From positions 135,427 through 199,426 of the forward strand of contig CAZEDM010000005.1 in assembly GCA_964511075.1 (NCBI GenBank): DNA of 64,000 nucleotides, read 5' to 3'. The notes below the pieces were generated by a model that saw only the letters and a program-made list of their open reading frames with translations, was not told the DNA's origin and searched no databases. A program made the translations under genes and the position numbers. This stretch comes from an uncultured Ignavibacteria bacterium (GTDB lineage Bacteria; Zixibacteria; MSB-5A5; RBG-16-43-9). Numbering within the stretch: the stretch's first letter is position 1; each line of letters opens with the position of its first letter. This document shows, in pieces, positions 2,701 to 48,272 of this stretch.

Positions 2701-4332
<1,632 letters not shown>

Positions 4333-4361
4333 AAAAGCATTTAGCCATTAGCTAATAGCTT

Positions 4362-4530
4362 ATAGGGGTAGACCTCCATGTCTACCCTGATGTAGGGGCG
4401 ACCCTTGTGGTCGCCCTTTTTATTCCCCTCTCCTTATAGGAGAGGGATAGGGTGAGGTCATTTTCGTAGTGCGGCCCTTCAGGGTCGCAAAGTTTTATGT
4501 AGCGGAAGACTTCAGCCTTCCATTCTTTCC
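4362..4530. repeat. cluster of REP-like GTAG-headed hairpins plus a partial copy of the 85-bp MITE-like element
   Basis: GGGTAGAC..GTCTACCC is a REP-like hairpin. CCCCTCTCC-ttat-AGGAGAGGG is the second half of the 6.2/7.8-kb element. ATGTAGCGGAAG..CCTTCCAT recurs at 21246-21285 and 30060-30085. Confidence 0.6.
4392..4420 (+). terminator. intrinsic terminator after groEL (GC hairpin plus T-run), itself a GTAG-headed REP copy
   Basis: GTAGGGGCGACC-cttg-TGGTCGCCC followed by TTTTTATT. Confidence 0.6.
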
Positions 4531-4655
4531 AATAACAGACACTAAAGACGCGCTCAGATTTCATCACGAACGATGCACTCCATATAAAATTCTAATTGAC
4601 TCTCCCTCAAATTTTATTATGATAAACTCAGGTTTTTCTATTTTATATTAAAGAC

Positions 4656-6053
4656 ATGGACCTTTTTGAGAAGGAAAAAGATAAGAGAATAAGCGATAAT
4701 CCGCCTCGCAGGGAGGAAACTCCCTTAGCTGACCGGATGAGGCCCAGGAACTTTGAGGAGTTTGTGGGACAGAAGCATATTCTCTCCCCAGGAAGCGTTT
4801 TAAGAAATGCCATCGAAAAAGGGGAGCTTCAGTCCCTCATCTTCTGGGGACCTCCGGGAACAGGCAAGACCACTTTGGCCTTTATCATAGCCAATTATAC
4901 CGGCGCAGATTTCAAAGCTTATTCTGCAGTTACCTCCGGGATAAAGGAGATCAAGGAGATCATAGCCTCTGCCACCAGACAGAAGAAGCTCTATAACCGG
5001 AAAACGATTCTATTCGTGGATGAAATCCACAGATTCAACAAAGCCCAGCAGGATGCCTTTTTACCCCACGTGGAAAAGGGAAACATAATCTTAATCGGCG
5101 CTACCACTGAAAACCCATCCTTTGAGGTGATCTCCGCCCTGCTCTCCAGAACCAAAGTTTATACCCTGAATCCCTTATCCGAACCAGAATTAAAACAGAT
5201 AATCGATGCTGCCTTAAAAGACAAGGAAAGAGGTCTGGGTAATTTCAAGATAACCTTAGAGGACAAAGCCAAAGATTTCATCTATCAGATGGCAAACGGC
5301 GATGCCCGGGTTGCCCTGTCCACCCTGGAGTTTGCTGTTATGACTACCTCTCCGGATGAAAAAGGGATAAGAAACATAAACTTACGGATAGCCCAGGAGG
5401 CTATGCAGAAGAAGGCTTTGGTATATGATAAGGCAGGAGAGGAGCATTATAATATAATCTCCGCATTACATAAAAGTTTAAGAGGCTCGGATGTGGATGC
5501 AGCCCTGTACTGGCTGGGAAGGATGCTTGCCGGCGGAGAGGATCCGCTTTACATCGCCAGAAGGTTAATCCGCTTTGCCACAGAGGACATCGGAAATGCA
5601 GACCCCCAGGCTTTGCAGGTAGCAATCGCCGCAAAAGAGGCATATCACTTTCTGGGAACGCCTGAAGGAGAGCTTGCCTTAGCCCAGACAGTTGTATATC
5701 TTGCCACAGCTCCCAAAAGCAATTCCATATATAAAGCCTTTGGAAAAGTGCAGAAGGAGATCCAGGAGACCCAGGCTTTACCTGTGCCCTTGCACATCCG
5801 AAATCCGGTCACCAAACTGATGAAGGAGCTGGATTACGGCAAGGATTACAAATACCCGCATGACCACCCGTATCATTTTGTGGATGAGGAGTACCTGCCG
5901 GATAATCTGAAAGGGAGAAGATATTATCACCCCACGGATTTCGGCTTCGAGAAAGAGATCAAGAAGAGAATGGAGTGGTGGCAGAAGAAAAAAGAAGAAC
6001 TGAGAAAAGGTAAGGAGAAAAACAAATCTAATAATTCGCAAAAGCAGAAATAA
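4656..6053 (+). CDS. rarA: replication-associated recombination protein A (AAA+ ATPase, MgsA/WRNIP1 family)
   Basis: [15 protein letters not shown], Walker [10 protein letters not shown], Walker [10 protein letters not shown], plus a Lys-rich C-terminal tail. Confidence 0.9.
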
Positions 6054-6094
6054 AGTTGCTCGATTCATCCAGCCTGTTGGGAAAGAACAGTAAT

Positions 6095-6173
6095 AGTAGG
6101 TCAAGCATGGCGAAGCCTGCTTGACAAAAATAGAAAATGTCGAGCAAACCTTTCGGATATGCTTGACCTACGA
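6095..6173. repeat. palindromic element with GTAGGTCAAG...CTTGACCTAC termini (family B)
   Basis: Termini TAGTAGGTCAAGCATG / ATATGCTTGACCTACGA. Related copies at 12635-12715, 13262-13306 and 28321-28395. Confidence 0.55.
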
Positions 6174-6174
6174 A

Positions 6175-6300
6175 AACTCTCCCTTTATGGGAGAGAGTAG
6201 AGAGCGGAGTCAGATATTTCACCCTCCCTTTATCCCTCCCATCGAGGGAGGGAAATTCAATCCCCTCTCCCCTCGTGGGAGAGGGATAGGGAGAGGGGGA
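6175..6300 (+). repeat. 85-bp multi-hairpin MITE-like element, copy 1
   Basis: TTCACCCTCCCTTTATCCCTCCC-atcg-AGGGAGGGAAATTCAATCCCCTCTCCCC-tcgt-GGGAGAGGGATAGGGAGAGGGG. Near-identical copies at 7808-7892, 7908-7993 and in reverse at 41713-41795; half copy at 4424-4458. Confidence 0.8.
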
Positions 6301-6381
6301 ACATAACGCAAAAAAAGATGAACATCTAAAATAAGCTCAGACGATATCAAATAGCCCAATAATTGGGCAACTACAAAACAG

Positions 6382-7665
6382 GTGCTTATGTTTAAAAAAA
6401 TCTTCATATTATCTCTTTTCCTGCTTTTTATTTTACTCCTGTTTCCCCTTAATTCGGACGCTCAAAAGATTCTGGTCCCCATGGATTTTTCTCAGTCTGA
6501 CCATCTTAAAGGCTACGGCGTTGCCTACTGGTGCTTAAAACAGGGTTATACTGTGGAATGGCTTCTGAATTACAGAGCTGGCTCCTTTATGGCAGACTAC
6601 CGGGAGAATATCGCCGATCGCTGCAGGCTACAGGGCGTAACCTTCGAGAATATAGACTTAGCCCAAGCTGGCTCCATCTATCAGGAGATAGAGGAGAACA
6701 ATATGGAGGTGGTCTTGCTGGAGAAGGCTCCAGCCATTGCAGTATATGTCCCACCTAACAAGGAACCCTGGGACGATGCGGTAAGACTGGCTTTGGCTTA
6801 TGCTGAGATCCCCTATAAGACCTTATGGGATGTGGAGGTCTTGAAGGGTGAGCTGGAGAAATACGACTGGCTGCATCTGCATCACGAGGATTTCACCGGG
6901 CAGTACGGGAAGTTCTATGCCAGTTTCAGAAACGAGCCCTGGTACCAGGAGGAACAGGCAACCTGCGAGGAAATTGCTAAAAAATTAGGCTTCAAAAAAG
7001 TCTCTGAGGAAAAAAAAGCAATAGCTCGGGCAATCAAAAACTACGTGGCCCAGGGAGGGTTTCTTTTTGCCATGTGCTCTGCCCCAGAGACTATGGACAT
7101 AGCCTTATCTGCAGAGGATGTGGATATTGTGCCCCAGGAGTTCGATGGAGACCCTCCTGATCCCGATTGTCAGAAGAAGTTGGATTATTCCAAGACCTTT
7201 GCCCTTACCGACTTCATCCTGTCCTTAAACCCCCTGGAATATAAACACTCCGATATAGACACCTATTTAGACCGCTTCACCTGGGGCATAGATAAGCGCA
7301 ACGATTATTTTACCCTTTTCGATTTCTCCGCCAAGCTGGACCCAGTTCCCTCGATGCTGGTCCAGGACCATGTTAACGTGGTCAGGGGCTTTATGGGACA
7401 GACCACCGCTTTCAGAAAATCACTTTTGAAAAAATATGTTACCATCTTAGGTGAGGTAGAGGGGCAGGATGAGGTTAGATATATTCACGGTAATTTCGGA
7501 AGGGGAACTTTCACCTTTTTATCCGGGCACGACCCGGAGGATTACGAACACCGGGTAGGCGACCCACCCACAGATTTGAGCCTGCACAAGAACTCACCCG
7601 GCTACCGCTTGATTCTGAATAACATCCTTTTCCCCGCAGCCAAAAAAAAGGAGAGGAAAACCTGA
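6382..7665 (+). CDS. secreted hypothetical protein (signal peptide), flanked by MITE-like repeats
   Basis: Hydrophobic N-terminus MFKKIFILSLFLLFILLLFPLNSDAQ. No confident family match from sequence alone. The real start is probably the ATG at 6388. Confidence 0.5.
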   Translation: MLMFKKIFILSLFLLFILLLFPLNSDAQKILVPMDFSQSDHLKGYGVAYWCLKQGYTVEWLLNYRAGSFMADYRENIADRCRLQGVTFENIDLAQAGSIYQEIEENNMEVVLLEKAPAIAVYVPPNKEPWDDAVRLALAYAEIPYKTLWDVEVLKGELEKYDWLHLHHEDFTGQYGKFYASFRNEPWYQEEQATCEEIAKKLGFKKVSEEKKAIARAIKNYVAQGGFLFAMCSAPETMDIALSAEDVDIVPQEFDGDPPDPDCQKKLDYSKTFALTDFILSLNPLEYKHSDIDTYLDRFTWGIDKRNDYFTLFDFSAKLDPVPSMLVQDHVNVVRGFMGQTTAFRKSLLKKYVTILGEVEGQDEVRYIHGNFGRGTFTFLSGHDPEDYEHRVGDPPTDLSLHKNSPGYRLILNNILFPAAKKKERKT

Positions 7666-7715
7666 AGGGAATTCTATAGCAAAGATAGACACTATACAGG
7701 TGTTTGTTAGTAGAC

Positions 7716-7775
7716 GGTAGCCACGGCCTTTAGGTTGCGGGTCCTATAAGGCAGTCTAAAGTCTGCGGCTACCAA
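7716..7775. repeat. REP-like long imperfect hairpin (GGTAGCCAC...GCGGCTACC)
   Basis: Inverted repeat GGTAGCCACGGCC ... CTGCGGCTACC with a GTAG head. Confidence 0.4.
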
Positions 7776-7807
7776 CTAAGAAATATAAGAAATAAAGGAA
7801 AACATAT

Positions 7808-7892
7808 TCACCCTCCCTTTTTATTCCCTCCCGTCAAGGGAGGGAAAATTCAGTTTCCTCTCCCCCTGTGGGAGAGGACTAAGGAGAGGGTG
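7808..7892 (+). repeat. 85-bp MITE-like element, copy 2
   Basis: Roughly 85% identical to the copy at 6220-6300, same orientation. Confidence 0.8.
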
Positions 7893-7907
7893 CATAAGAA
7901 GATATAA

Positions 7908-7993
7908 TTCACCCTCCCCTTAATTCCCTCCCTTCGAGGGAGGGAAAATTCTGTTCCCTCTCCCCTGGTGGGAGAGGGGTAGGAAGAGGGGGG
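7908..7993 (+). repeat. 85-bp MITE-like element, copy 3 (tandem with copy 2)
   Basis: Same family; the two tandem copies are 15 bp apart. Confidence 0.8.
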
Positions 7994-8004
7994 AAAATAA
8001 TAAA

Positions 8005-9198
8005 ATGAAAACCCCGGTTAAAATCTATTACTTTATTCAGTTTCTCTCCAGTTTAGCCTTTGGCTCGATTATTCCCATCTATGTGCTTTATTTCAGGGAG
8101 TACCAGCTCAATCTTTTCCAGATAGCCCTGTTAGCCTCCGTATTTGAAGCCTCCATCTTAATAACCGAGCTCCCCACCGGGTATCTGGCGGATTTATATG
8201 GACGTAAGCTCTCGGTTATCCTTTCCAGCTTGTCTTTATTTTTCGGAGGAGCAGTTTTCATACTCTTTCCATCTCTGGCTGGATTTATCCTGGCTGAGAT
8301 TTTAGTGGGCCTGGGTGAGAGCTTAAAATCCGGAGCGTTAGATGCCTGGATAGTTGATTCCTTGAAATACCAGAATGAGGCTGAGAAGCAAAAAAAGGTT
8401 TTCGGAACAGGCACGAAATACAAAACCGCGGGAAATCTAATCGGGTTAATCTTCGGTGGCTATTTGGGTTTTTTTAATCTCAAGTTAACCTGGTTTCCTT
8501 TCACACTTATCTTTTTCTTCTCCTTTTTCTTCCTCTTTTTGTTTATGACGGAAGAATACCGCACAGGGACAGAGAGTACCCCTCACAGGGTAAAACCGCT
8601 CAAACAGTTGAGGGAAACTGTACGGGAAAGCTTTTCACTTCTGAGACTTGAAAAAACAATTTTGGCTCTGATTATCCTGGGGCTTTTTTCCGAATTCTCC
8701 TATGAAACCATAAGCCAGTATTGGCAGGTTCACTTCTATGAGGGTTTAAAGATAAGCCCGGAATATTTCGGCTGGATAGCTGCTGCCTCCTCTGTGATTC
8801 TGATATTATCTTTGAATCTGGTCATGAAACTATCCTCAAGGTTCAAATCGGAAGCCAACTTCGTGCTCCTGCTGCAGTTTGGCTTTATAAGCTCTCTTGT
8901 AATTATCGCCTTGAGCATAAGCCCTTTTTTAGCCATAATGCTCTTCGTTCTCTTACAGACATTCCAGGGGTTCAAGGAGCCTATTTTACTGGATCTGTAT
9001 AACAGATCCATCCCTTCCCACAGACGAGCTACCCTGCTTTCATTTATAAATCTTACCAATTCCACCGGGGAGGTCTTAGCCGGACTGTGTATCGGCATAA
9101 TTGCCTTAAAGTTAGGGTTAAGGGTAACCTTTCTTTTCGGTTCTTCTATCCTTGTGGTAGGAATAATCTTATTTTATCTGGTAAAAAAGAGAAGGTGA
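8005..9198 (+). CDS. MFS transporter
   Basis: About 12 predicted TM helices and the MFS loop motif GYLADLYGRK between TM2 and TM3. Confidence 0.8.
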   Translation: MKTPVKIYYFIQFLSSLAFGSIIPIYVLYFREYQLNLFQIALLASVFEASILITELPTGYLADLYGRKLSVILSSLSLFFGGAVFILFPSLAGFILAEILVGLGESLKSGALDAWIVDSLKYQNEAEKQKKVFGTGTKYKTAGNLIGLIFGGYLGFFNLKLTWFPFTLIFFFSFFFLFLFMTEEYRTGTESTPHRVKPLKQLRETVRESFSLLRLEKTILALIILGLFSEFSYETISQYWQVHFYEGLKISPEYFGWIAAASSVILILSLNLVMKLSSRFKSEANFVLLLQFGFISSLVIIALSISPFLAIMLFVLLQTFQGFKEPILLDLYNRSIPSHRRATLLSFINLTNSTGEVLAGLCIGIIALKLGLRVTFLFGSSILVVGIILFYLVKKRR

Positions 9199-12590: not shown

Positions 12591-12715
12591 TGTAGGGACA
12601 GAACACCGTTCTGTCCTTTACTTTTAGATATGTAGGTCAACCATGTCCGCCAGAGGCGGAACTGGTTGACATCTTTTTTTGAATTGTCAAGCAGGCTACA
12701 CCATACTTGACCTAC
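12591..12715. repeat. REP cluster: GTAGGGACAGAACACCGTTCTGTCC hairpin plus a family-B element enclosing a GTCCGCCAGAGGCGGAC hairpin
   Basis: The same GTAGGGACAGAACACYGTTCTGTCC sequence recurs at 21185-21211. The GTCCGCCAGAGGCGGAC hairpin recurs at 30090-30110 and 36060-36076. Confidence 0.65.
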
Positions 12716-13215: not shown

Positions 13216-13391
13216 ATTTACTCTTTCGATGATCTTAGTCCTCCAAAAAACCGGAATTGGTTGATAATCCCTTCTGCTTTGTCAAACAAGCTACGCCATG
13301 CTTGACTTACAAGTTTGCTTTACTTTCCAAACGCCAAACTCACAAACTCCAAACTGCTCTCAGCCCCGCCTGTGGTGGGATTTCGCTCCGC

Positions 13392-14660
13392 TCAACACCC
13401 CGGTTTTGGTCCGCCTTTGAAAAGATAATTAATCAAATAGACCACGTCACTTACGCCAACATTACCATCACAATTAGCATCCGCAGATGCTGTGAATTTG
13501 GGTAAAAATCCTCCTGTGAAAAGATAATTAATCAGATAAATCACATCTGAAACGCTTAGCACTCCGTCTCCATTACAATCCCCTTCGATCCAGGGAGGAT
13601 ATAAAGCCAGAGAAATGGGTCCGTTCCCTACCAGGTATCTTTGGATAAGAGTCCCGGATGAATCCAGTAGAGTAACATCATCGCTCTGGTAGTTGCAGCT
13701 TAGAACTTTCGAATGAAAAAGAACAGTCACCGCTATCACTCCGGAATCAGTGGTTATGGGATTTTCTTGTCCGTAAATCATAGTGTCCGCGATGCTGTTA
13801 AAAGAATATATCAAACCCGGGTCAGGTGTCCATCCCACTGCAGTCAGATATCCTATCCCATCTGCACTGATGGAGATTACCCCCGGGGTTCCTCCTGTAA
13901 CTATGCTGTCAATTACCGTATTGGTTCTTGTATTTATTCTATAAACCTTTCCGGTAACAGACCCGTAATCACCGGTGCAGACCACATTCAACTCACCCTC
14001 AGGGTCTAAATCCAGATATTGAGGATTTAGCCCTACCAATATGCTATCCACAACTGTCTCTGTCTCTAAATCGAATACATACACCCTTCCCGGAATATAG
14101 CTTAAGGCTTTAAAGTTTTCTGTCCTCTGCACGGAATCGAAAATAAATTCCTGTCTATAAAACCCGCCTGTTTTGGGCCAGGAAAAACCAGAACAGCAGA
14201 TATAAAGCTTGTTCCCCACAGCAAGAATTCCCTCTGGAGCTCTTCCTACTCCATACTCCCCTGTCACAGTTTGATTTTTAATATCGAATTTGGAGATGGT
14301 GTTAGTTGCCCAGTTGGTAACGTAAGCGAATTGGGAATCCGCAAAAGCCATATGATAAGGACTTCTTGGCTCCCCGATATTTATATACCCGGCTGTGGAT
14401 TCTGTTTTAAGATTTATGATCTGGATATCGTGGTCTAATGAGTTGACCACATAGGCGTAATCTCCCTTTATGACAATCTGGTTGGGAGATACCCCTAAGT
14501 TCAGGAAATTGTTGACCACCTCGCCGGTGGTTAGATTGATTTTAGATAAGGTTTCATCCCCGGGATAACTGTTGACCACATAAGCTATATTATCTGCCCG
14601 GGCAGTGGAGAAAACCAAAGTTGAACCTAAAACAAGAGCTAAACAAAGATTTTTTAACAT
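13392..14660 (-). CDS. secreted YVTN-type beta-propeller protein with a C-terminal dockerin-like module
   Basis: Signal peptide, repeated YAYVVNS / YVTNW beta-propeller blades, and a C-terminus DCNGDGVLSVSDVIYLINYLFTGG ... DANCDGNVGVSDVVYLINYLFKGGPKPGC matching the duplicated dockerin calcium-binding loop pattern. Confidence 0.65.
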   Translation of the reverse strand: MLKNLCLALVLGSTLVFSTARADNIAYVVNSYPGDETLSKINLTTGEVVNNFLNLGVSPNQIVIKGDYAYVVNSLDHDIQIINLKTESTAGYINIGEPRSPYHMAFADSQFAYVTNWATNTISKFDIKNQTVTGEYGVGRAPEGILAVGNKLYICCSGFSWPKTGGFYRQEFIFDSVQRTENFKALSYIPGRVYVFDLETETVVDSILVGLNPQYLDLDPEGELNVVCTGDYGSVTGKVYRINTRTNTVIDSIVTGGTPGVISISADGIGYLTAVGWTPDPGLIYSFNSIADTMIYGQENPITTDSGVIAVTVLFHSKVLSCNYQSDDVTLLDSSGTLIQRYLVGNGPISLALYPPWIEGDCNGDGVLSVSDVIYLINYLFTGGFLPKFTASADANCDGNVGVSDVVYLINYLFKGGPKPGC

Positions 14661-14714: not shown

Positions 14715-16961
14715 TCAATTCCGGTTTAATCCCCAGCTCAGGGATAAACTTATTCCCCATTCTCTTCCGGGCATAGGATGGCGGTAGATAAGTTTGTATT
14801 CCTCATCCGTAAGATTATTCCATTCTAATTTGAGTTTTGTCTCCGTATTTTTGAATTTCTTCTTCAGTCCTATCATCAGGTCCTCTAAGTGATAAGGCTC
14901 CTCTTTTTTGGTGTTAGCCGGTCCGGTAAAGCGCTCTGAAACCCAGCGAATTTTATACAGAGCCTCAAACAGCTTGTACTCGAACCTGAAGCTTAAATTG
15001 GTTAGATACCGGGGTCTGAAAGGAATGAACTTGCCATCTTCCAGCCTGTCCCCGCTTCTGTTCTTGGCAATGGAGACCGTATTGTTGTAGATAACCTCAA
15101 AATACTCTTTCGGGCTTTTCCAGGTTATAAAATCCTCATGCCCGTAGATCTCCGCCTTTGATACATTGACCGGATAGTATCTGCCGTCGAAACTTCTCTG
15201 CCATTCGATAAGATCTGTTATCAGGCTGTGGAAAAAAGTCATCCCTGCGGAAAGCTCTCCCAACCAGGGAAGATGGAATTCGCCTCCTGCTTCTGAATCC
15301 TCTGATTTCTCCGGCAGAAGATTGGGATTACCCTGAGCGAAAACGTCCCCTTTCCAGAACAAGGCATTATTGGAGGGCTGGCGATAGGATTTCCCGTAAC
15401 TTGCTCTTAAGGCTAAGCGGTATCTTTCGCCTTTCGAGAGCACCAGGCCCATCTGCGGGGAAAGGAAATCCCTTAGAGATTTTGAATCGTCCCATCTTAA
15501 GGCAAAATTCAAAGTCAGGTTCTTGAAGAACAACTCCTTAGGCAGAGTAAACTCCTGCTGGTCCGAGAAGAAAAGACTGAAGGTCGACCTTTCTATCCTG
15601 CCCAGGCTATTCTCCGGGATAAGAAAATCCTTGTGATTTAGAACGTCTTCCTGAAACTGGGTTCCGGCTTTGAGCCTGTTAGCTTGAAGAGGCTGTATAT
15701 GCGCAAGCAGTGAGAAATCTATTATATCATCCACATATCTGGAATCGAAAACTGAGATAGTATCGTTCTGAAAATGCTGTTCGAAGCGGGAATACCCTGA
15801 ACTGCCCTCCAGAAAAAAGCTGGGAGAGAATCGTCTGGTCAGTTTCAGGCTCAAAAGCCTGCGCTCATCCTCTGCCCGGGCATTTTGATATGCCACCATC
15901 CAGCCATAGCTTCCCGGAATCCCCTTCTTTGCCTGATAGGCCTGTCCGGAAAAACTCAGCTCGGTTTTCGGATCGAAGAGGTAATTTCCGGAAAAGAATA
16001 TATTGGTAGCTTTGTGATAAGCGTTTTTTCTGGTAGTGGTGCTGTCTCCGTTTTTGCCCTGCTGGTTCAAAAGCTCCCGCTTCTCCGGGTCATCATAAGC
16101 CCATATATTGAAATCGTTTTTGGAATATTCATAGGTATAGGTGAGCTTCAGGAAGAACTTTCCAAAAAAAAGATTCGAAAAAGAGGAATTGAAAATCTCG
16201 GTATCCCAGCTCCCCCAATGATTTTCCAGGCTTAGCCGGCAGGGCTCCTCTCTTTGAGGGAGCGTGATTATATTGATTATCCCCCCTAAGGCATCCGCAC
16301 CGAAGAGGGCAGACTGCCCTCCCTTGAAAACCTCGATCCTCTCCACCATTTCCAGAGGGATGGTGTTAAGGTCGGCTATTCCGTTTCCGGAAGGATTCAG
16401 CTTCTGCCCGTCCAGGAGGACCAGGACATGCTCGGGGGAGCTTCCCCTTATGCTAACCTGATGAGTCCCTCCCACTGTCCCGCTTTTCTGCAGGTAAACG
16501 CCGTTTGTCGACTCGATGACCTCGGAAAGATTTCGAGCCTGCAGTCTTTCAATTCGTCTCCTGTCTATGGTCTCAAGGCTGGCACTGTTGAGAGGTGGTT
16601 TTTCGCCTGAGATCTCAATTCCCTGCAGGAAATATAGCTTCTTTTCTAAGCTGACCCCCAGCTCAGCGGTCACATCCTCATATACCTTTACCTCATAGAT
16701 CTTCTTGTTTTCATACCCCTGGGCTGAAGCCTCCAGAGTATATGTGCCAACCGGGATATTCTCCAGATAGAAATAACCCCTGCTGTCAGTTTTGCATTCG
16801 TAATTGGTATTCAGAATCCTGATGGTGGCTTTGGGAACAGGTTGAAGGTCCTGTTTATCACAAACCCTGCCTTCAATTTTTATGGTGGATTGGGCAAATC
16901 CAGAATAGAAAAAAAAGAGGCTGAAGAATACGGCAAGGGCAGGAAGAAAAATTTTTTTCAT
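14715..16961 (-). CDS. TonB-dependent outer-membrane receptor with an N-terminal carboxypeptidase-regulatory-like domain; likely cobalamin/corrinoid uptake given the upstream riboswitch
   Basis: Signal peptide, CarbopepD_reg-like IEGRVCD..GTYTLEASAQGYE, a plug domain, a C-terminal beta-barrel ending in an aromatic residue, and a cobalamin riboswitch immediately upstream. Confidence 0.8.
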   Translation of the reverse strand: MKKIFLPALAVFFSLFFFYSGFAQSTIKIEGRVCDKQDLQPVPKATIRILNTNYECKTDSRGYFYLENIPVGTYTLEASAQGYENKKIYEVKVYEDVTAELGVSLEKKLYFLQGIEISGEKPPLNSASLETIDRRRIERLQARNLSEVIESTNGVYLQKSGTVGGTHQVSIRGSSPEHVLVLLDGQKLNPSGNGIADLNTIPLEMVERIEVFKGGQSALFGADALGGIINIITLPQREEPCRLSLENHWGSWDTEIFNSSFSNLFFGKFFLKLTYTYEYSKNDFNIWAYDDPEKRELLNQQGKNGDSTTTRKNAYHKATNIFFSGNYLFDPKTELSFSGQAYQAKKGIPGSYGWMVAYQNARAEDERRLLSLKLTRRFSPSFFLEGSSGYSRFEQHFQNDTISVFDSRYVDDIIDFSLLAHIQPLQANRLKAGTQFQEDVLNHKDFLIPENSLGRIERSTFSLFFSDQQEFTLPKELFFKNLTLNFALRWDDSKSLRDFLSPQMGLVLSKGERYRLALRASYGKSYRQPSNNALFWKGDVFAQGNPNLLPEKSEDSEAGGEFHLPWLGELSAGMTFFHSLITDLIEWQRSFDGRYYPVNVSKAEIYGHEDFITWKSPKEYFEVIYNNTVSIAKNRSGDRLEDGKFIPFRPRYLTNLSFRFEYKLFEALYKIRWVSERFTGPANTKKEEPYHLEDLMIGLKKKFKNTETKLKLEWNNLTDEEYKLIYRHPMPGREWGISLSLSWGLNRN

Positions 16962-17021: not shown

Positions 17022-17265
17022 GCAACAAAAAACCAGCTCGCATAAGGGTAGCTGGCTTAAAAATTTCCCAACCTTTTCCCTACCCGCGCAAGGAAATATT
17101 TACGGTTAAAACAATCTGGCAGGTTTCCTGACTCTGTGGCTTCAGGCCTACCGGCTTTACCTTCCCATCTAAATGACAGTGGTATAGTCAAAGCTTTCGT
17201 AGCCACTTACAGTAGCGGGGCTGTAGCGGAATCTCACCGCCTTCCCGTTCACCAGATTGTAAATC
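17022..17265 (-). promoter_or_regulatory. cobalamin (AdoCbl) riboswitch with terminator hairpin, in the leader of the TonB-dependent receptor gene
   Basis: Minus strand reads GGTGAACGGGAAGGCGGTGAGATTCCGCTACAGCCCCGCTACTGTAAG (conserved GGTG..AGGGAA..GGTGA.ATTCC..GC.CCCGCTACTGTAA core). The B12 box AGTCAGGAAACCTGCC is at 17119-17134 (minus). Hairpin CCAGCTACCCTTATGCGAGCTGG plus TTTTTT at about 17022-17055. Confidence 0.8.
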
Positions 17266-17456
17266 AGATATCAAAGATCAAAATCAAAAAATATTATATC
17301 TTACCTTTTATGTTATGTCAAGCAAATTCTCATTATTTTCGGTAAGCGTCTTTTTTTATCCGGGTTAAGGTCTTATAAATCATAGAACTTCACCCAAAAA
17401 AATATTTTAAAATTAGTCTTTATCTGCTTATATTAAATCTGGTAGATTTTATTGAT

Positions 17457-21184: not shown

Positions 21185-21285
21185 GTAGGGACAGAACACT
21201 GTTCTGTCCCTATTTTCAAATGTAGCAGAAACCCTTAGGTTCCCATCTTAGAGAAAATGGAAGGCTAAAGCCTTCCGCTACATTT
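21185..21285. repeat. REP pair: GTAGGGACAGAACACTGTTCTGTCCCT and GGAAGGCTAAAGCCTTCCGCTACAT hairpins
   Basis: First hairpin is nearly identical to 12602-12627. Second is the reverse complement of the 4498-4526 element. Confidence 0.65.
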
Positions 21286-28319: not shown

Positions 28320-28450
28320 GTTTTTGTCAAGTAGTCCTACAGTCAACAAGCTCACTGCCTGAGTTTGTCGAAGGGCGGACATACTTGACCTACCTGCTGA
28401 AAGCCTCGCCCTTCGACTGTAGGGGCACATTGCAATGTGCCCCTACACAG
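28320..28450. repeat. REP cluster (family-B element, long GTCGAAGGGCG/CGCCCTTCGAC hairpin, perfect palindrome TGTAGGGGCACATTGCAATGTGCCCCTACA)
   Basis: Inverted repeats read directly from the sequence. GTAG heads. Confidence 0.65.
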
Positions 28451-29904: not shown

Positions 29905-30059
29905 TTAAACCTCCTTATATGATATATAGTTGAGTTTTAAATCATCTCTTTTATCTAAAGACATTTAAGACCTTAATTTATCTTTTAAATTTATAAAAAT
30001 CAACCATATTCTTTAATTTAAGGGACTAAAAAGCTCTGGTCTTTCTTTCTTGTGTAGCG

Positions 30060-30115
30060 GAACTCTTTAGAGTTCCATAAAAATGGAGGTCTGATCCGCC
30101 TCTGGCGGACCGCTA
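30060..30115. repeat. compound REP (outer stem TGTAGCGG/CCGCTACA enclosing two hairpins)
   Basis: GGAACTCTTTAGAGTTCC and TCCGCCTCTGGCGGA hairpins sit inside an 8-bp outer stem. Confidence 0.6.
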
Positions 30116-30176
30116 CAAAAAATTAAGCTTCTCTCTAATTCTCTCCAGCAAGGGAGAGAGGGGATCGTCTCACATC

Positions 30177-35970: not shown

Positions 35971-36090
35971 TAGAGATGCATTGCTATGCATCTCTACAGA
36001 AGTGCGGCGGGCAAGGGTGCCCGCCCTACAAATAACAAAGGTATTAATAATTGTTGGCAGTCCGCCAGAGGCGGACCAGCCCTGCATTTT
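35971..36090. repeat. REP cluster (TAGAGATGCA-ttgcta-TGCATCTCTA; GCGGGCA-aggg-TGCCCGC; GTCCGCCAGAGGCGGAC)
   Basis: Three consecutive perfect hairpins. The last is shared with 12648-12665 and 30090-30110. Confidence 0.65.
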
Positions 36091-41690: not shown

Positions 41691-41712
41691 ATGTGCACCG
41701 ATTAGAAGCACT

Positions 41713-41795
41713 GTTCCTCCTTGAATTTCCCTCCTTTGTAGGGAGGGATAGAGGGAGGGTGAACCCCTCCCTCTATGGGAGAGGGAATTTATATT
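41713..41795 (-). repeat. 85-bp MITE-like element, copy 4 (reverse orientation), in the nfo 5' region
   Basis: Reverse complement reads TTCACCCTCCCTCTATCCCTCCCTACAAAGGAGGGAAATTCAAGGAGG..., matching the 6.2-kb copy. Confidence 0.75.
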
Positions 41796-42807
41796 ACCAC
41801 AGCCTCTGCCTCTTATTAAGATACGCAAACAAAGCCCTGTCAAAAGGAACAGAGGTGTCCAATCTCACATAATCTACCATACTCTCTCTGCATTCCAAAG
41901 TATATCTGTTCAACAGCTCGTTCATCTTCTCCTGATACACTCTTCTTACCTGCCAGGGAGAGGTCATAATCTCCTCTCTGGTCTCCAAGTCTTTAAAAAC
42001 CGCTTGGTTCTCGAAGGCGAAGCTTTTCTCCTTGGAGTCTAATATATGAAATACGATTACCTCATGCTTTTTATGCCTGAAATGTTTCAGCCCTGTGATT
42101 ATCTCCTCAGGCTGGTCAAAGAGGTCAGATAAAAGTATTATCAGACCTCTTCTTTTTATCCTCTCTGCCATCTGATGCAGGGTTGAGCTAATATCAGTGG
42201 TCTCAGAGGGTGAAAGTTTATCTAACTCTTTTAAAAGGTTATGCAGATGGCTTAAAGTCGACTTGGGCGGGATATACTTTCTTATCCTCCGGTCGAATAC
42301 CACCAGCCCCACAGAATCCCTTTGTTTGAGCATCAGGTAGGACAAAGCCGCGCAAAGATAGGAAGCATATTCCAATTTATTTATCCCATTGGAGGAATAA
42401 CCCATAGAGCCTGAAATATCCAGAAGCAGATAAGCCTTTAAATTAGTCTCTTCCTCGAATTCCTTGACAAAATACCTGTCTGCCTTGCCGTAGACTTTCC
42501 AGTCGATATTCCTCAAGGGGTCACCCGGCATATACTGCCTGTGCTCGGCAAACTCAACTGAAAAGCCGTGATAGGGACTGCGATGCAGTCCAGCAATAAA
42601 CCCCTCCACCACCAACCTTGCCTTAATCTCAATCCCGGCGAGCTTGGATACAACCTCCGGTCTCAAAAATCTGCGATGATCTTGCATATCTATTTGGAAC
42701 TCTCCGCCAAATGCGGGGTTAATGCTGGAAGTCTTTAAGACCTCCGCTACATTTCCACAACTATTTTGGTGGCTCAGGCATCTTGCCTGAGCATATTGAA
42801 CAGACAA
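41794..42807 (-). CDS. DUF58 family protein (vWA-like; MoxR partner)
   Basis: Conserved DUF58 blocks (YMPGDPLRNIDWKVYGKADRYFVKEFEEE, LLDISGSM, RGLIILLSDLFD). Located downstream of the MoxR ATPase. Confidence 0.8.
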   Translation of the reverse strand: MSVQYAQARCLSHQNSCGNVAEVLKTSSINPAFGGEFQIDMQDHRRFLRPEVVSKLAGIEIKARLVVEGFIAGLHRSPYHGFSVEFAEHRQYMPGDPLRNIDWKVYGKADRYFVKEFEEETNLKAYLLLDISGSMGYSSNGINKLEYASYLCAALSYLMLKQRDSVGLVVFDRRIRKYIPPKSTLSHLHNLLKELDKLSPSETTDISSTLHQMAERIKRRGLIILLSDLFDQPEEIITGLKHFRHKKHEVIVFHILDSKEKSFAFENQAVFKDLETREEIMTSPWQVRRVYQEKMNELLNRYTLECRESMVDYVRLDTSVPFDRALFAYLNKRQRLW

Positions 42808-42830
42808 GAACGTCTGTTCTACCTTTTTTC
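42783..42830. repeat. REP-like element (CAGACAAGAACGTCTGTTCTACC)
   Basis: Hairpin CAGAC..GTCTG / AGAACAG..CTGTTCT. Related to 43060-43105, 21135-21165 and 35262-35290. Confidence 0.5.
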
Positions 42831-43049
42831 TTTCAGTTCCCCTATCTCCTTTTCCACCTCTTTGAGCTCCTCTTCCAAATCCCTTTTATATTCCTCCAAC
42901 ATCTTCAGATATTCCTCTTTTTTGGGAAATCTCCAGGGTCCGCGAAAATAGAAGCCAAAGGGTGGAAACCCAAAATCAAATCCAAAGTCTTTGAATCTAA
43001 ACCCTTTTCTCATATCTTGTTCCTCGCGATACTTCGATAACTTAGACAT
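42819..43049 (-). CDS. small hypothetical protein (aromatic/Gly-rich FGFDFGFPPFGFYF segment plus charged coiled-coil tail)
   Basis: ORF flanked on both sides by REP elements. The N-terminal part of the track ORF overlaps a REP, so the start is placed at the internal Met. No SD checked. Confidence 0.3.
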   Translation of the reverse strand: MSKLSKYREEQDMRKGFRFKDFGFDFGFPPFGFYFRGPWRFPKKEEYLKMLEEYKRDLEEELKEVEKEIGELKEKR

Positions 43050-43059
43050 CCTTACCTGA

Positions 43060-43105
43060 ATCCACAGAACAGGCAAGATGTCTGTTCTACCTTTAAAAAT
43101 TACTC
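43060..43105. repeat. REP-like element (AGAACAGGCAAGATGTCTGTTCT)
   Basis: Palindrome read from the sequence. Confidence 0.5.
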
Positions 43106-46616: not shown

Positions 46617-48272
46617 TCAAAAAATAGTTTTTACCATGACATCGTCGAAATAGTTGATGCCATCTTCAACTCTAAGCCCAATCTTACCTTGAGAGTATGT
46701 ATTATTATTTGCAGTAAGTTTTAATTGTCCATTCACATATAGGCTGATGGTTGAACCCTCTAGTTCCATCTTAACAGAATACCATTGCGTCGCGTCTATG
46801 GTATCAGCTACTTGGACTAAATAAGAAGGCGACCCATCGACTGTTTTACCTATCCACCAAGAACCCACATTTCCATTCCAGTTGGCATCAAATGCACCTT
46901 CGTAATAATTCTTGTTATCTTGTACTCTCCCTAATACAGAGAAATGATGCCTACCTTCACCTAACTTCACTTTAACTGTTATCGAGTAGTCATCCCAAGA
47001 ATGTTGGCCAGTATGAGATTGCGCATCTGAGGTCCAATTGTATGGGTCGTATCCTTTGTAAATCTGGTTTTCAACTGTCCACGTACCATTATTCGTATCT
47101 TGCCATCCAGTGTGAACCCATCCACTATCATCACCATCACTAAAATCATCGAAAAAGAGGATATCTTCAGATGGTATTTCTGGACAGCCTGGTTGAGGTC
47201 CGCCTTTGAAGAGATAACTTATCAAATAAACTACATCTGTAACCGATAATTGTTCATCACCATTTACATCTCCGATTAGAAATGGATTGGGCGCTGAACC
47301 ACCCTTGAAGAGATAATTTATCAGATAAATCACATCCGAAACAGATACAGTTCCATCACTATTAGCATCTCCACACAAAGGCATTGGCAAATCTGTTACT
47401 ATCCATAGCTCTTCGTTACCTGTTCTATCAGATGAAAATACCAAAGTTCGACTATCTGGTGACCAACTTGCCCAGATGTTGTTACCCTCGCCGTTAGTTA
47501 TTTGATATAAACCATAAGCTTCGCCTCTAGCATCAACTACCCAGATGTCCCACTTCCCAGATCTTTGCGAAGAAAAAGCGATCCATTTGCCATCAGGAGA
47601 ATATTCTGGTTCTACACCATCTCTCGGCCAACTATATGTTAATCTTGTCCATTCTGTGCAGTCAGAGGAATTAATGCTATAGACATTCTCATCGGCACTA
47701 TATTCAAATATTATCTTTGAACCATCGGGAGAGTAACTTGGATAGTTTTCACTGCTTGAGCTTGTACATAATTGGGAAGGAGTTCCTCCTGAAGATGGAA
47801 CTTTCCAGAGATGATATCCGCCTGACAAGTGCCTGAATATTATAGCATCACCATCCGGCGAATAGTTTGGTCCGACGCAATCTGTCAGATAAGTAATTCT
47901 ATCCGATTCTCCACCTGAAGAAGGTATCGTGTATATATCCCAATAACTCTCAGCTGTTGATTGGTATACTATGGTATCATCATTAGGTGACCATTCAGGC
48001 TCTTGCTCTCCGAAAGGACCCCAGACACCTAATCCCGATGATGGTGATAGAAGGGTTGGTGTTCCTCCTACCGCAGGCATAATCCACATGCCATATTGTC
48101 CTCCACGCTCTGATAAGAAAACAATTCGACTACCATCATGGCTCCAGCTTGGTTGAATATCCTGTCCCGAATTATTGGTTAGCTGGGTAAAAGTGACAGC
48201 GTGACTTAGTGTGACGCTCAGTAATACCAAAAGAGCAATCAAAACGTAGAAAACAAATCTTACACTGATCAT
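46617..48272 (-). CDS. secreted PD40/TolB-like beta-propeller protein with an internal dockerin-like module and a C-terminal jelly-roll (DUF1080/LamG-like) domain
   Basis: Signal peptide. Repeated SPDGS.IVF / WSPD.. blades. CGDANSDGTVSVSDVIYLINYLFKGG ... GDVNGDEQLSVTDVVYLISYLFKGGPQPGC is nearly identical to the C-terminus of the 13392-14660 protein. Confidence 0.65.
   Translation of the reverse strand: MISVRFVFYVLIALLVLLSVTLSHAVTFTQLTNNSGQDIQPSWSHDGSRIVFLSERGGQYGMWIMPAVGGTPTLLSPSSGLGVWGPFGEQEPEWSPNDDTIVYQSTAESYWDIYTIPSSGGESDRITYLTDCVGPNYSPDGDAIIFRHLSGGYHLWKVPSSGGTPSQLCTSSSSENYPSYSPDGSKIIFEYSADENVYSINSSDCTEWTRLTYSWPRDGVEPEYSPDGKWIAFSSQRSGKWDIWVVDARGEAYGLYQITNGEGNNIWASWSPDSRTLVFSSDRTGNEELWIVTDLPMPLCGDANSDGTVSVSDVIYLINYLFKGGSAPNPFLIGDVNGDEQLSVTDVVYLISYLFKGGPQPGCPEIPSEDILFFDDFSDGDDSGWVHTGWQDTNNGTWTVENQIYKGYDPYNWTSDAQSHTGQHSWDDYSITVKVKLGEGRHHFSVLGRVQDNKNYYEGAFDANWNGNVGSWWIGKTVDGSPSYLVQVADTIDATQWYSVKMELEGSTISLYVNGQLKLTANNNTYSQGKIGLRVEDGINYFDDVMVKTIF

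Follow-up and report, generated by a model that had tools for sequence, protein, structure and literature searches.

Intergenic three-arm repeats around a core gene of a Zixibacteria-like genome probably belong to the BoxC/PIT/TMECO class

The repeats that surround a gene for a 425-aa protein in a Zixibacteria-like genome (contig CAZEDM010000005.1, positions 135,427 to 199,426) are very probably three-arm elements of the BoxC/PIT/TMECO class, prone to transient folding and local instability. All coordinates refer to this stretch of 64,000 nt, termed the window. An initial annotation of the same DNA had described the repeats as ~85-bp elements resembling miniature inverted-repeat transposable elements (MITEs), with the gene between them as a mobilised cassette. 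Comparison with published motifs and with related genomes removes this false lead: the gene is no mobile cassette, and the 85-mer is no new MITE. A repeat from an uncultured phylum is assigned instead to a class of motifs known chiefly from E. coli and other Proteobacteria.

Each ~85-bp copy consists of two separable three-arm units, of different subtypes and inverted relative to each other. Unit A is composed of C-arm, C-arm, loop and G-arm, with 7-nt arms (CCCTCCC); unit B has the inverted design of A, that is C-arm, loop, G-arm and G-arm, with 9-nt arms (CCCTCTCCC). The opposite strand of a C-G-G unit reads as two pyrimidine arms followed by one purine arm. We name the copies c1 to c5, each built from units A and/or B. 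Three are full copies by repeat finding and alignment, namely c1 (6218-6299), c2 (7807-7892) and c3 (7908-7993), with gapped pairwise identities of 81.6%, 86.0% and 82.8%. The units alternate in arrays on both sides of the 425-aa gene, B'-A-B upstream and A-B-A-B downstream, with A-to-B linkers of 8-10 nt that contain AAATTC and B-to-A linkers of 12-16 nt.

Repeat finding and alignment place the family where the initial annotation had located it, and the two CT/GA stem-loops that it had described are seen in every full copy. Its view of the 85-mer as one MITE-like element does not hold, since units A and B also occur singly, in B-then-A order and in A-B-A-B arrays, and its terminal inverted repeats are merely the outer third arms of units A and B. 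Of the four full copies that it had put above 80% identity, three stand (81.6-86.0%). The fourth, at 41713-41795, is just 54-60% identical to the full copies across its whole length and holds one A half (41721-41763, minus strand; 76-79% identity to the other A halves). The element at 4424-4458, described as a half copy and likewise rated above 80%, is a unit B (4425-4457) with 65-74% identity to the other B halves. Two units had been overlooked, one a decayed unit B (6177-6206), the other a weak minus-strand unit (30128-30159).

The repeat was identified by a full-text literature search with the arm sequences, which led to Holder et al. 2015 (PMC4666352). The motif described there carries the names BoxC, PIT (potential intrastrand triplex) and TMECO, and follows the pattern CCCTCNCCC-N3-6-GGGNGAGGG-N3-GGGNGAGGG (PMC4666352). 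Applied to the window, this published pattern matches 6263-6297 exactly and 7956-7990 with one substitution, and shorter versions of it are seen in the B units of c2 and c5. With the same regular expression, the units of E. coli K-12 at hrpB-mrcB and lldD-trmL (L132, L133) are recovered as well. E. coli K-12 contains 23 BoxC copies, all intergenic and without strand bias, including five inverted pairs that each combine two subtypes, and 3610 copies are known across 262 proteobacterial genomes (PMC4666352). Between strains, the flanks of the E. coli motif vary significantly more than control regions do, and Holder et al. found no link to transposons and no association with phages (PMC4666352).

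These traits recur in the window. Copies c1, c2 and c3 are each a unit A joined to an inverted unit B, so that two subtypes form an inverted pair. The family is intergenic and multi-copy, with ~10 units in five spacers of the 64 kb. Its surroundings vary between relatives, in which units are lost, decayed or nested and the rSAM, DUF559 and MFS genes are present or absent. The E. coli elements share the three-arm design and the arm sequences (CCCTCTCCC / GGGAGAGGG / GGG[A/T]GAGGG), as well as the intergenic, multi-copy occurrence in inverted two-subtype pairs and a neighbourhood that varies between relatives. The TTCACCCTC lead-in of the C-C-G reading is present both here and in the hrpB-mrcB unit, and the lldD-trmL pair has the A-then-B order, with a spacer of 59 nt.

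There are differences as well. The host here is a Zixibacteria-like genome and no proteobacterium, and unit A, the partner, is built with 7-nt arms. Among the five E. coli pairs, four are arranged B-then-A with spacers of ~16-27 nt, whereas the window composite prefers A-then-B, an 8-10 nt AAATTC linker and tandem A-B-A-B arrays. The second loop is ATA, CTA or GTA in the window and TTA or CCG in E. coli BoxC. The same motif has been read by Kaplan et al. 2016 as a switch between G-quadruplex, hairpin and duplex (PMC5100583). Their E. coli elements HPG1/HPG2 belong to the same sequence family (GGGAGAGGG-TTA-GGGTGAGGG, with a conserved C-rich 5' flank), are intergenic and often lie as opposite-strand pairs (PMC5100583). 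The window units, too, contain four G3 tracts; they differ in their G-quadruplex loops, which would be of 1-3-1 to 1-5-1 nt.

The arms are short and compositionally simple, as would be expected if they were chance low-complexity CT/GA sequence with no family relationship. This explanation is extremely improbable. A generic three-arm search (pyrimidine arm, loop, purine arm, loop, mirror purine arm) returned ~10 distinct units in the window, against zero from 20 shuffles. The full copies share 82-86% identity across ~85 nt, and the architecture recurs in relatives and in other phyla. Every unit is intergenic: all of them fall within five spacers, although coding sequence makes up 88% of the window. 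The arms have the mirror symmetry that a triplex requires, and each unit has its four G3 tracts on the purine strand. Watson-Crick folding of each full copy as RNA predicts a three-way junction with a free energy of about -49 to -53 kcal/mol (z-scores from -2.7 to -5.8).

Upstream of the gene, the decayed unit B' (6177-6206, plus strand) reads CTCTCCC-TTTAT-GGGAGAG-AGTA-GAGAGCG and is the ortholog of intact B units that occupy this position in two relatives (contigs L003 and L007). Unit A of c1 (6218-6253) has the plus-strand sequence TTCACCCTCCC-TTTAT-CCCTCCC-ATCGA-GGGAGGGA, its C-G-G (purine-motif, G-quadruplex-capable) reading lying on the minus strand. Unit B of c1 (6263-6299, plus) is CCCTCTCCC-CTCGT-GGGAGAGGG-ATA-GGGAGAGGG(GG), the exact TMECO/BoxC pattern. 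Downstream, unit A of c2 (7807-7846, minus) is TTCACCCTCCC-TTTTTATT-CCCTCCC-GTCAA-GGGAGGGAA, followed by a unit B with shortened arms (7856-7892, plus; CCTCTCCCC-CTGT-GGGAGAGG-ACTAA-GGAGAGGGTG). In c3, unit A (7908-7946, minus) is TTCACCCTCCCC-TTAATT-CCCTCCC-TTCGA-GGGAGGGAA, and unit B (7956-7993, plus), with the one-substitution TMECO match, ends 11 nt before the start of the MFS gene.

Three further sites lie away from these arrays. The three-arm finder located a solitary unit B with 8-nt arms between groEL and mgsA (4425-4457, plus; CCCCTCTCC-TTATA-GGAGAGGG-ATA-GGGTGAGG). Unit A of c4 (41721-41763) reads TTCACCCTCCC-TCTAT-CCCTCCC-TACAAA-GGAGGGAAATTCAA on the minus strand, which is the direction of the flanking genes, and its C-G-G reading is on the plus strand. 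Beside it, extra CT/GA arms at 41764-41790 (minus strand CCCTCTCCC-ATA-GAGGGAGGGG) form no unit B; they pair with the first arm of the c4 unit A in a 12-bp palindrome. The weak unit at 30128-30159 (minus), intergenic and poorer in A/G, is TCTCTCC-CTTGCT-GGAGAGA-ATTA-GAGAGAAG, and its family membership is uncertain.

The flanked gene most likely starts at ATG 6388, giving 425 aa, and an identical protein is called on a Logan metagenome contig; the initial annotation had placed the gene at 6382-7665, with a less likely start that made it 427 aa. Position 1 of the Logan contig L001 corresponds to window position 6227, so that this public contig ends 9 nt into c1, showing that the c1 repeat breaks short-read assemblies. 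Homologues of the protein number more than 8000; those closest among the named ones are from candidate division Zixibacteria, under the NCBI label 'asparagine synthetase B', and no Pfam or NCBIfam family matches it. Synteny was compared in six relatives at 84-95% amino-acid identity. The gene lies downstream of mgsA in all six, with one extra reverse-strand gene between them in L002 only, and upstream of HlyD-ABC-FtsX wherever the contigs extend that far. Following mgsA in every relative examined and belonging to a large conserved family, the gene is a core gene at a fixed place and not a cassette, contrary to the mobilised cassette proposed earlier. The closest relative (L009, 95% amino-acid identity) has the gene in its place and no A/B units upstream of it, a situation that the initial annotation itself had named as refuting its reading.

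A true MITE, that is an ~85-bp non-autonomous transposon with its transposase elsewhere and the 425-aa gene as a mobilisable cassette, is very improbable on these data. The elements share several features with MITEs such as Correia/NEMIS and Nezha, including size, an intergenic site, strong predicted folding and imperfect inverted ends (TTCACCCTCYCC ... GGRGAGGGTG). Several copies are 82-86% identical, the upstream array is present in some close relatives and absent from others, and other hairpin elements are nested in units of relatives. However, the halves behave as autonomous units, found separately, in reverse order and in arrays, and there is no known parent insertion sequence. The flanks of c1 (GATAT...AACAT), c2 (ACATA...CATAA) and c3 (TATAA...AAAAT) show no consistent direct repeat that would represent a target-site duplication, CATA being found on both sides of c2 only. 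No transposase was found in the window or in the relatives' loci, where no systematic search was made. The gene is syntenically fixed in all relatives and belongs to a family of thousands, and Holder et al. saw no transposon link for the E. coli motif (PMC4666352). A MITE mobilised by a transposase, and movement of the 425-aa gene by the units, are therefore not supported.

The arrangement of units in the relatives adds a historical argument. Upstream of the gene, a B..A pair is found in L003 and L007, and L002 has a unit A alone, ~25 nt before the start codon. A full A-B composite lies directly 3' of the stop codon in L010, and several relatives contain solitary units. Spacer alignment shows that the upstream B..A pair is common to the window, L003 and L007 and absent from L009 and L010, and thus old residence at one site followed by later loss would be the simplest history, which also argues against a MITE.

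Gene content downstream of the 425-aa gene varies, with units at each junction where the gene order is readable. The window has gene-MFS, L010 has gene-DUF559-rSAM-MFS, L009 has gene-rSAM, L007 has gene-rSAM-HlyD and L003 has gene-HlyD; this is a qualitative comparison among the six relatives, made with no matched control spacers. The earlier description of the locus as recombination-prone fits this variation. Recombination between two A units in direct orientation may have removed rSAM from the lineage of the window, which would give the window's A-B-A-B array. In L010 (1809-2223), an open reading frame (ORF) for a 120-aa DUF559 protein, a Vsr-like endonuclease domain, lies between direct B repeats (1809-1841 and 2191-2223), inside what corresponds to the window's A-B-A-B array. 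Possibly this is a small selfish gene that was inserted into the repeat or duplicated together with it. Other small hairpins are nested in units of relatives and of metagenome sequences, at L009 3757-3900, L010 4247-4345 and L002 7186-7245, and in L140/L143 and L135. Among these, CCGCCTATGGCGG is nested in the loop of unit A and TTGAAAATCCCGCCAGAGGCGGG between the two G-arms of unit B. The latter occupies an identical position in non-orthologous loci of two genomes, indicating either a preferred target or a composite copied as a whole.

The nested insertions would also suit REP/BIME-like elements, hairpin units copied into alternating spacer arrays by a RAYT-type (HUH/Y1) single-strand transposase. 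The window units resemble the REP/BIME elements of enterobacteria and the REPINs of Pseudomonas in being short intergenic palindromes, single or in alternating inverted arrays with defined linkers, here of two types (8-10 nt A-to-B and 12-16 nt B-to-A), and in forming doublets that fold into a longer hairpin. A GTAG head is a hallmark of REP elements, and classic GTAG-headed palindromes occupy many spacers of the same genome. However, the GTAG/CGTC head is missing from units A and B, which begin TTCACCC and CCCTCTCCC, and REPs have nothing equivalent to the third arm. None of the copies was seen to have a RAYT gene beside it, with no systematic search made for RAYT or transposase genes. Copying of this kind is quite unlikely for the three-arm units.

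The GTAG-headed small intergenic palindromes form several families, at 4368-4545, 6096-6171, 12592-12715, 13278-13310, 21185-21283, 28419-28446, 30054-30126, 35997-36090 and 42750-43090. Examples are GTAGGTCAAGCA...TGCTTGAC (three copies), GTAGGGACAGAACA...TGTTCTGTCC, GTAGCGGAAGnCTTnAGCCTTCC and GTAGGGGCACATTGCAATGTGCCCCTA. In L009, a GTAG palindrome occupies the spacer between mgsA and the 425-aa gene in place of A/B units. A census of GTAG plus hairpin under loose criteria gave 40 occurrences against 21-43 in shuffles, so that the long-stem examples alone are meaningful.

The units could also act as RNA cis elements in untranslated regions, as terminators, 3'-end stabilisers or translational switches; in the switch version, the Shine-Dalgarno-like GGGAGGG arm would be sequestered by CCCTCCC. 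The five window loci are all oriented like their flanking genes. Units begin at the stop codon in L002, L007 and L010 (TGATCACCC) and end at or near a ribosome-binding site (RBS) or start codon in L002 and at nfo in the window. The predicted RNA folds are very stable, and conservation of the gene's upstream unit A greatly exceeds that of neutral sites. On the other side, a terminator consensus scan gave hairpins only, without U-tracts, and intrinsic terminators were rejected as candidates for want of proper T-tracts. Rfam returned no relevant match at the gathering threshold across the whole window or at E<=1 in 4300-8100, the matches at E<=1 being sub-threshold, microRNA-like eukaryotic hairpins attributable to chance. 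Among orthologs, the distance to the start codon ranges from ~20 to ~140 nt. The E. coli motif lacked promoter and terminator activity in the tests of Hoyne and Maher, according to Holder et al. (PMC4666352). Across phyla, unit A has the same orientation as tandem flanking genes in 22 cases and the opposite in 22, by crude gene calls; a simple ORF caller, unreliable in GC-rich genomes, placed 40 of 133 matches inside ORFs, and the comparison with tandem genes alone was used. With orientation evenly split, a strand-specific RNA role finds no general support, and an RNA element is an unlikely explanation of the family as a whole.

The initial annotation had correctly set a reverse copy in the 5' region of nfo. 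The c4 unit A ends at the nfo RBS, AAGGAGG, just after which lies the GTG start of nfo at 41708 (product against TIGR00587 nfo, 318 bits). In 41709-41748 (minus strand), this RBS takes the place of the would-be third purine arm of the c4 hairpin (TCCCTCC-CTACAAA-GGAGGGA-AATTCA-AGGAGG), probably by coincidence. Since c4 abuts the nfo RBS and the L002 unit lies just before a start codon, we considered mimicry of the anti-Shine-Dalgarno sequence; TCACCCTCCCTTT resembles the 16S 3' end, and GGGAGGG is Shine-Dalgarno-like. The spread of distances to the start codon and the even split of orientations led us to drop it as a general explanation.

Beyond the relatives, we scanned one genome per species for the unit A pattern ACCCTCCC-N3-9-CCCTCCC-N4-6-GGGAGGG. 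It was found in at least 120 stretches (133 matches) from at least 12 phyla, often several times per genome, compared with ~1-10 matches expected by chance from base composition on our own estimate. The matches come from Nitrospirota, Desulfobacterota, Planctomycetota, Bacteroidota, Alpha- and Gammaproteobacteria, Chloroflexota, Actinomycetota, Spirochaetota, Paenibacillus, Armatimonadota, Nitrospinota and WOR-3. Twelve of the 133 unit A matches listed have a full TMECO-type unit B within the next 45 nt. The exact Zixibacteria-type A-to-B composite is rare in JGI metagenome contigs (16 stretches, ~8 loci), too rare for target sites to be analysed. The loops of the hairpins differ by clade, being ATCAA-like in Nitrospirota, Desulfobacterota and these Zixibacteria but GCAAGC in Alphaproteobacteria, a pattern that favours lineage-specific subfamilies, their arms constrained, over recent transfer across phyla. 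The scan thereby reveals a short-armed CCCTCCC variant of the class spread over at least a dozen phyla.

Viral and prophage contigs in IMG/VR (L150-L292) gave 63 stretches with the unit A pattern and at least 120 with the TMECO pattern, some contigs holding 3-4 copies (L169, L175), a count in which phage DNA and host flank are not distinguished. More than two tandem C-arms precede the hairpin in several sequences, for example (ACCCTCCCCTA)n at ~540-603 of L027 (Pirellulales), and also in L033, L081 and L013. Arm number can thus expand, probably by slippage.

The most likely mode of action of these BoxC-class repeats would be transient folding of exposed strands into hairpins, triplexes or G-quadruplexes, leading to local indels and rearrangements. 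Judging from the work on the E. coli motif, the duplex of the units would mostly be ordinary B-DNA. When a strand is exposed in replication, repair or transcription, the unit may fold into a hairpin, and the spare purine arm could then either enter the hairpin groove as an intrastrand triplex or form a G-quadruplex with the other three G-tracts. Folded units would hinder polymerases and favour slippage, deletion and recombination, and in this way the repeats would persist, duplicate, decay and vanish in spacers and mark sites where neighbouring genes change. The triplex or H-DNA that the initial annotation had envisaged from the polypurine/polypyrimidine arms coincides with the published interpretation of the motif (PMC4666352).

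Several observations weigh against this assignment and mechanism. Unit A, with its 7-nt arms on the other strand, falls outside the 9-nt TMECO pattern and has to be regarded as a variant. A single strand of the E. coli motif forms a triplex in vitro, with no footprint in vivo (PMC4666352). The common orientation of the five window loci with their flanking genes is a further point, from a small number of loci. Finally, orthologs of the c1 unit A are identical to the window at 35/35 positions in L002, 33/35 in L007 and 31/35 in L003, while four-fold degenerate sites of the adjacent gene are just 44-51% identical and the surrounding spacer is unalignable. Orthologous A units are more alike than paralogs within one genome (86-88% identity among the A halves inside the window). 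The 35/35 ortholog suggests either constraint on the unit or re-homogenisation, rather than a purely passive role limited to instability; part of the identity reflects the strong family consensus in the loops.

It is this ortholog identity, between genomes whose four-fold sites approach saturation, the closer likeness of orthologs than paralogs and the same arms in at least 12 phyla that prompt a different reading, in which selection acts on the sequence of the three-arm units to preserve a function common to different bacterial phyla. The units could, for example, be recognised by some widespread factor that binds DNA or RNA, or serve as a structural switch at gene boundaries. We regard this as rather unlikely; were it true, genomes of candidate phyla would allow the question of BoxC function to be approached by comparison. 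Short-read assemblies broken at these repeats, and spacers of changing gene content marked by them, make the family useful for curating metagenome-assembled genomes and for reading synteny breaks.

Two other features of the window were recorded. Direct repeats of 74 nt with a 99-nt period occur at 13411-13583 and 47200-47372, inside two minus-strand genes. They are coding repeats, unrelated to the three-arm units; a 422-aa ORF at 13392-14660 has a Dockerin_1 domain in a Logan gene call. A cobalamin riboswitch (RF00174, 88 bits) lies at 17101-17271 on the minus strand, upstream of the gene for a 748-aa TonB-dependent receptor (14715-16961, minus).

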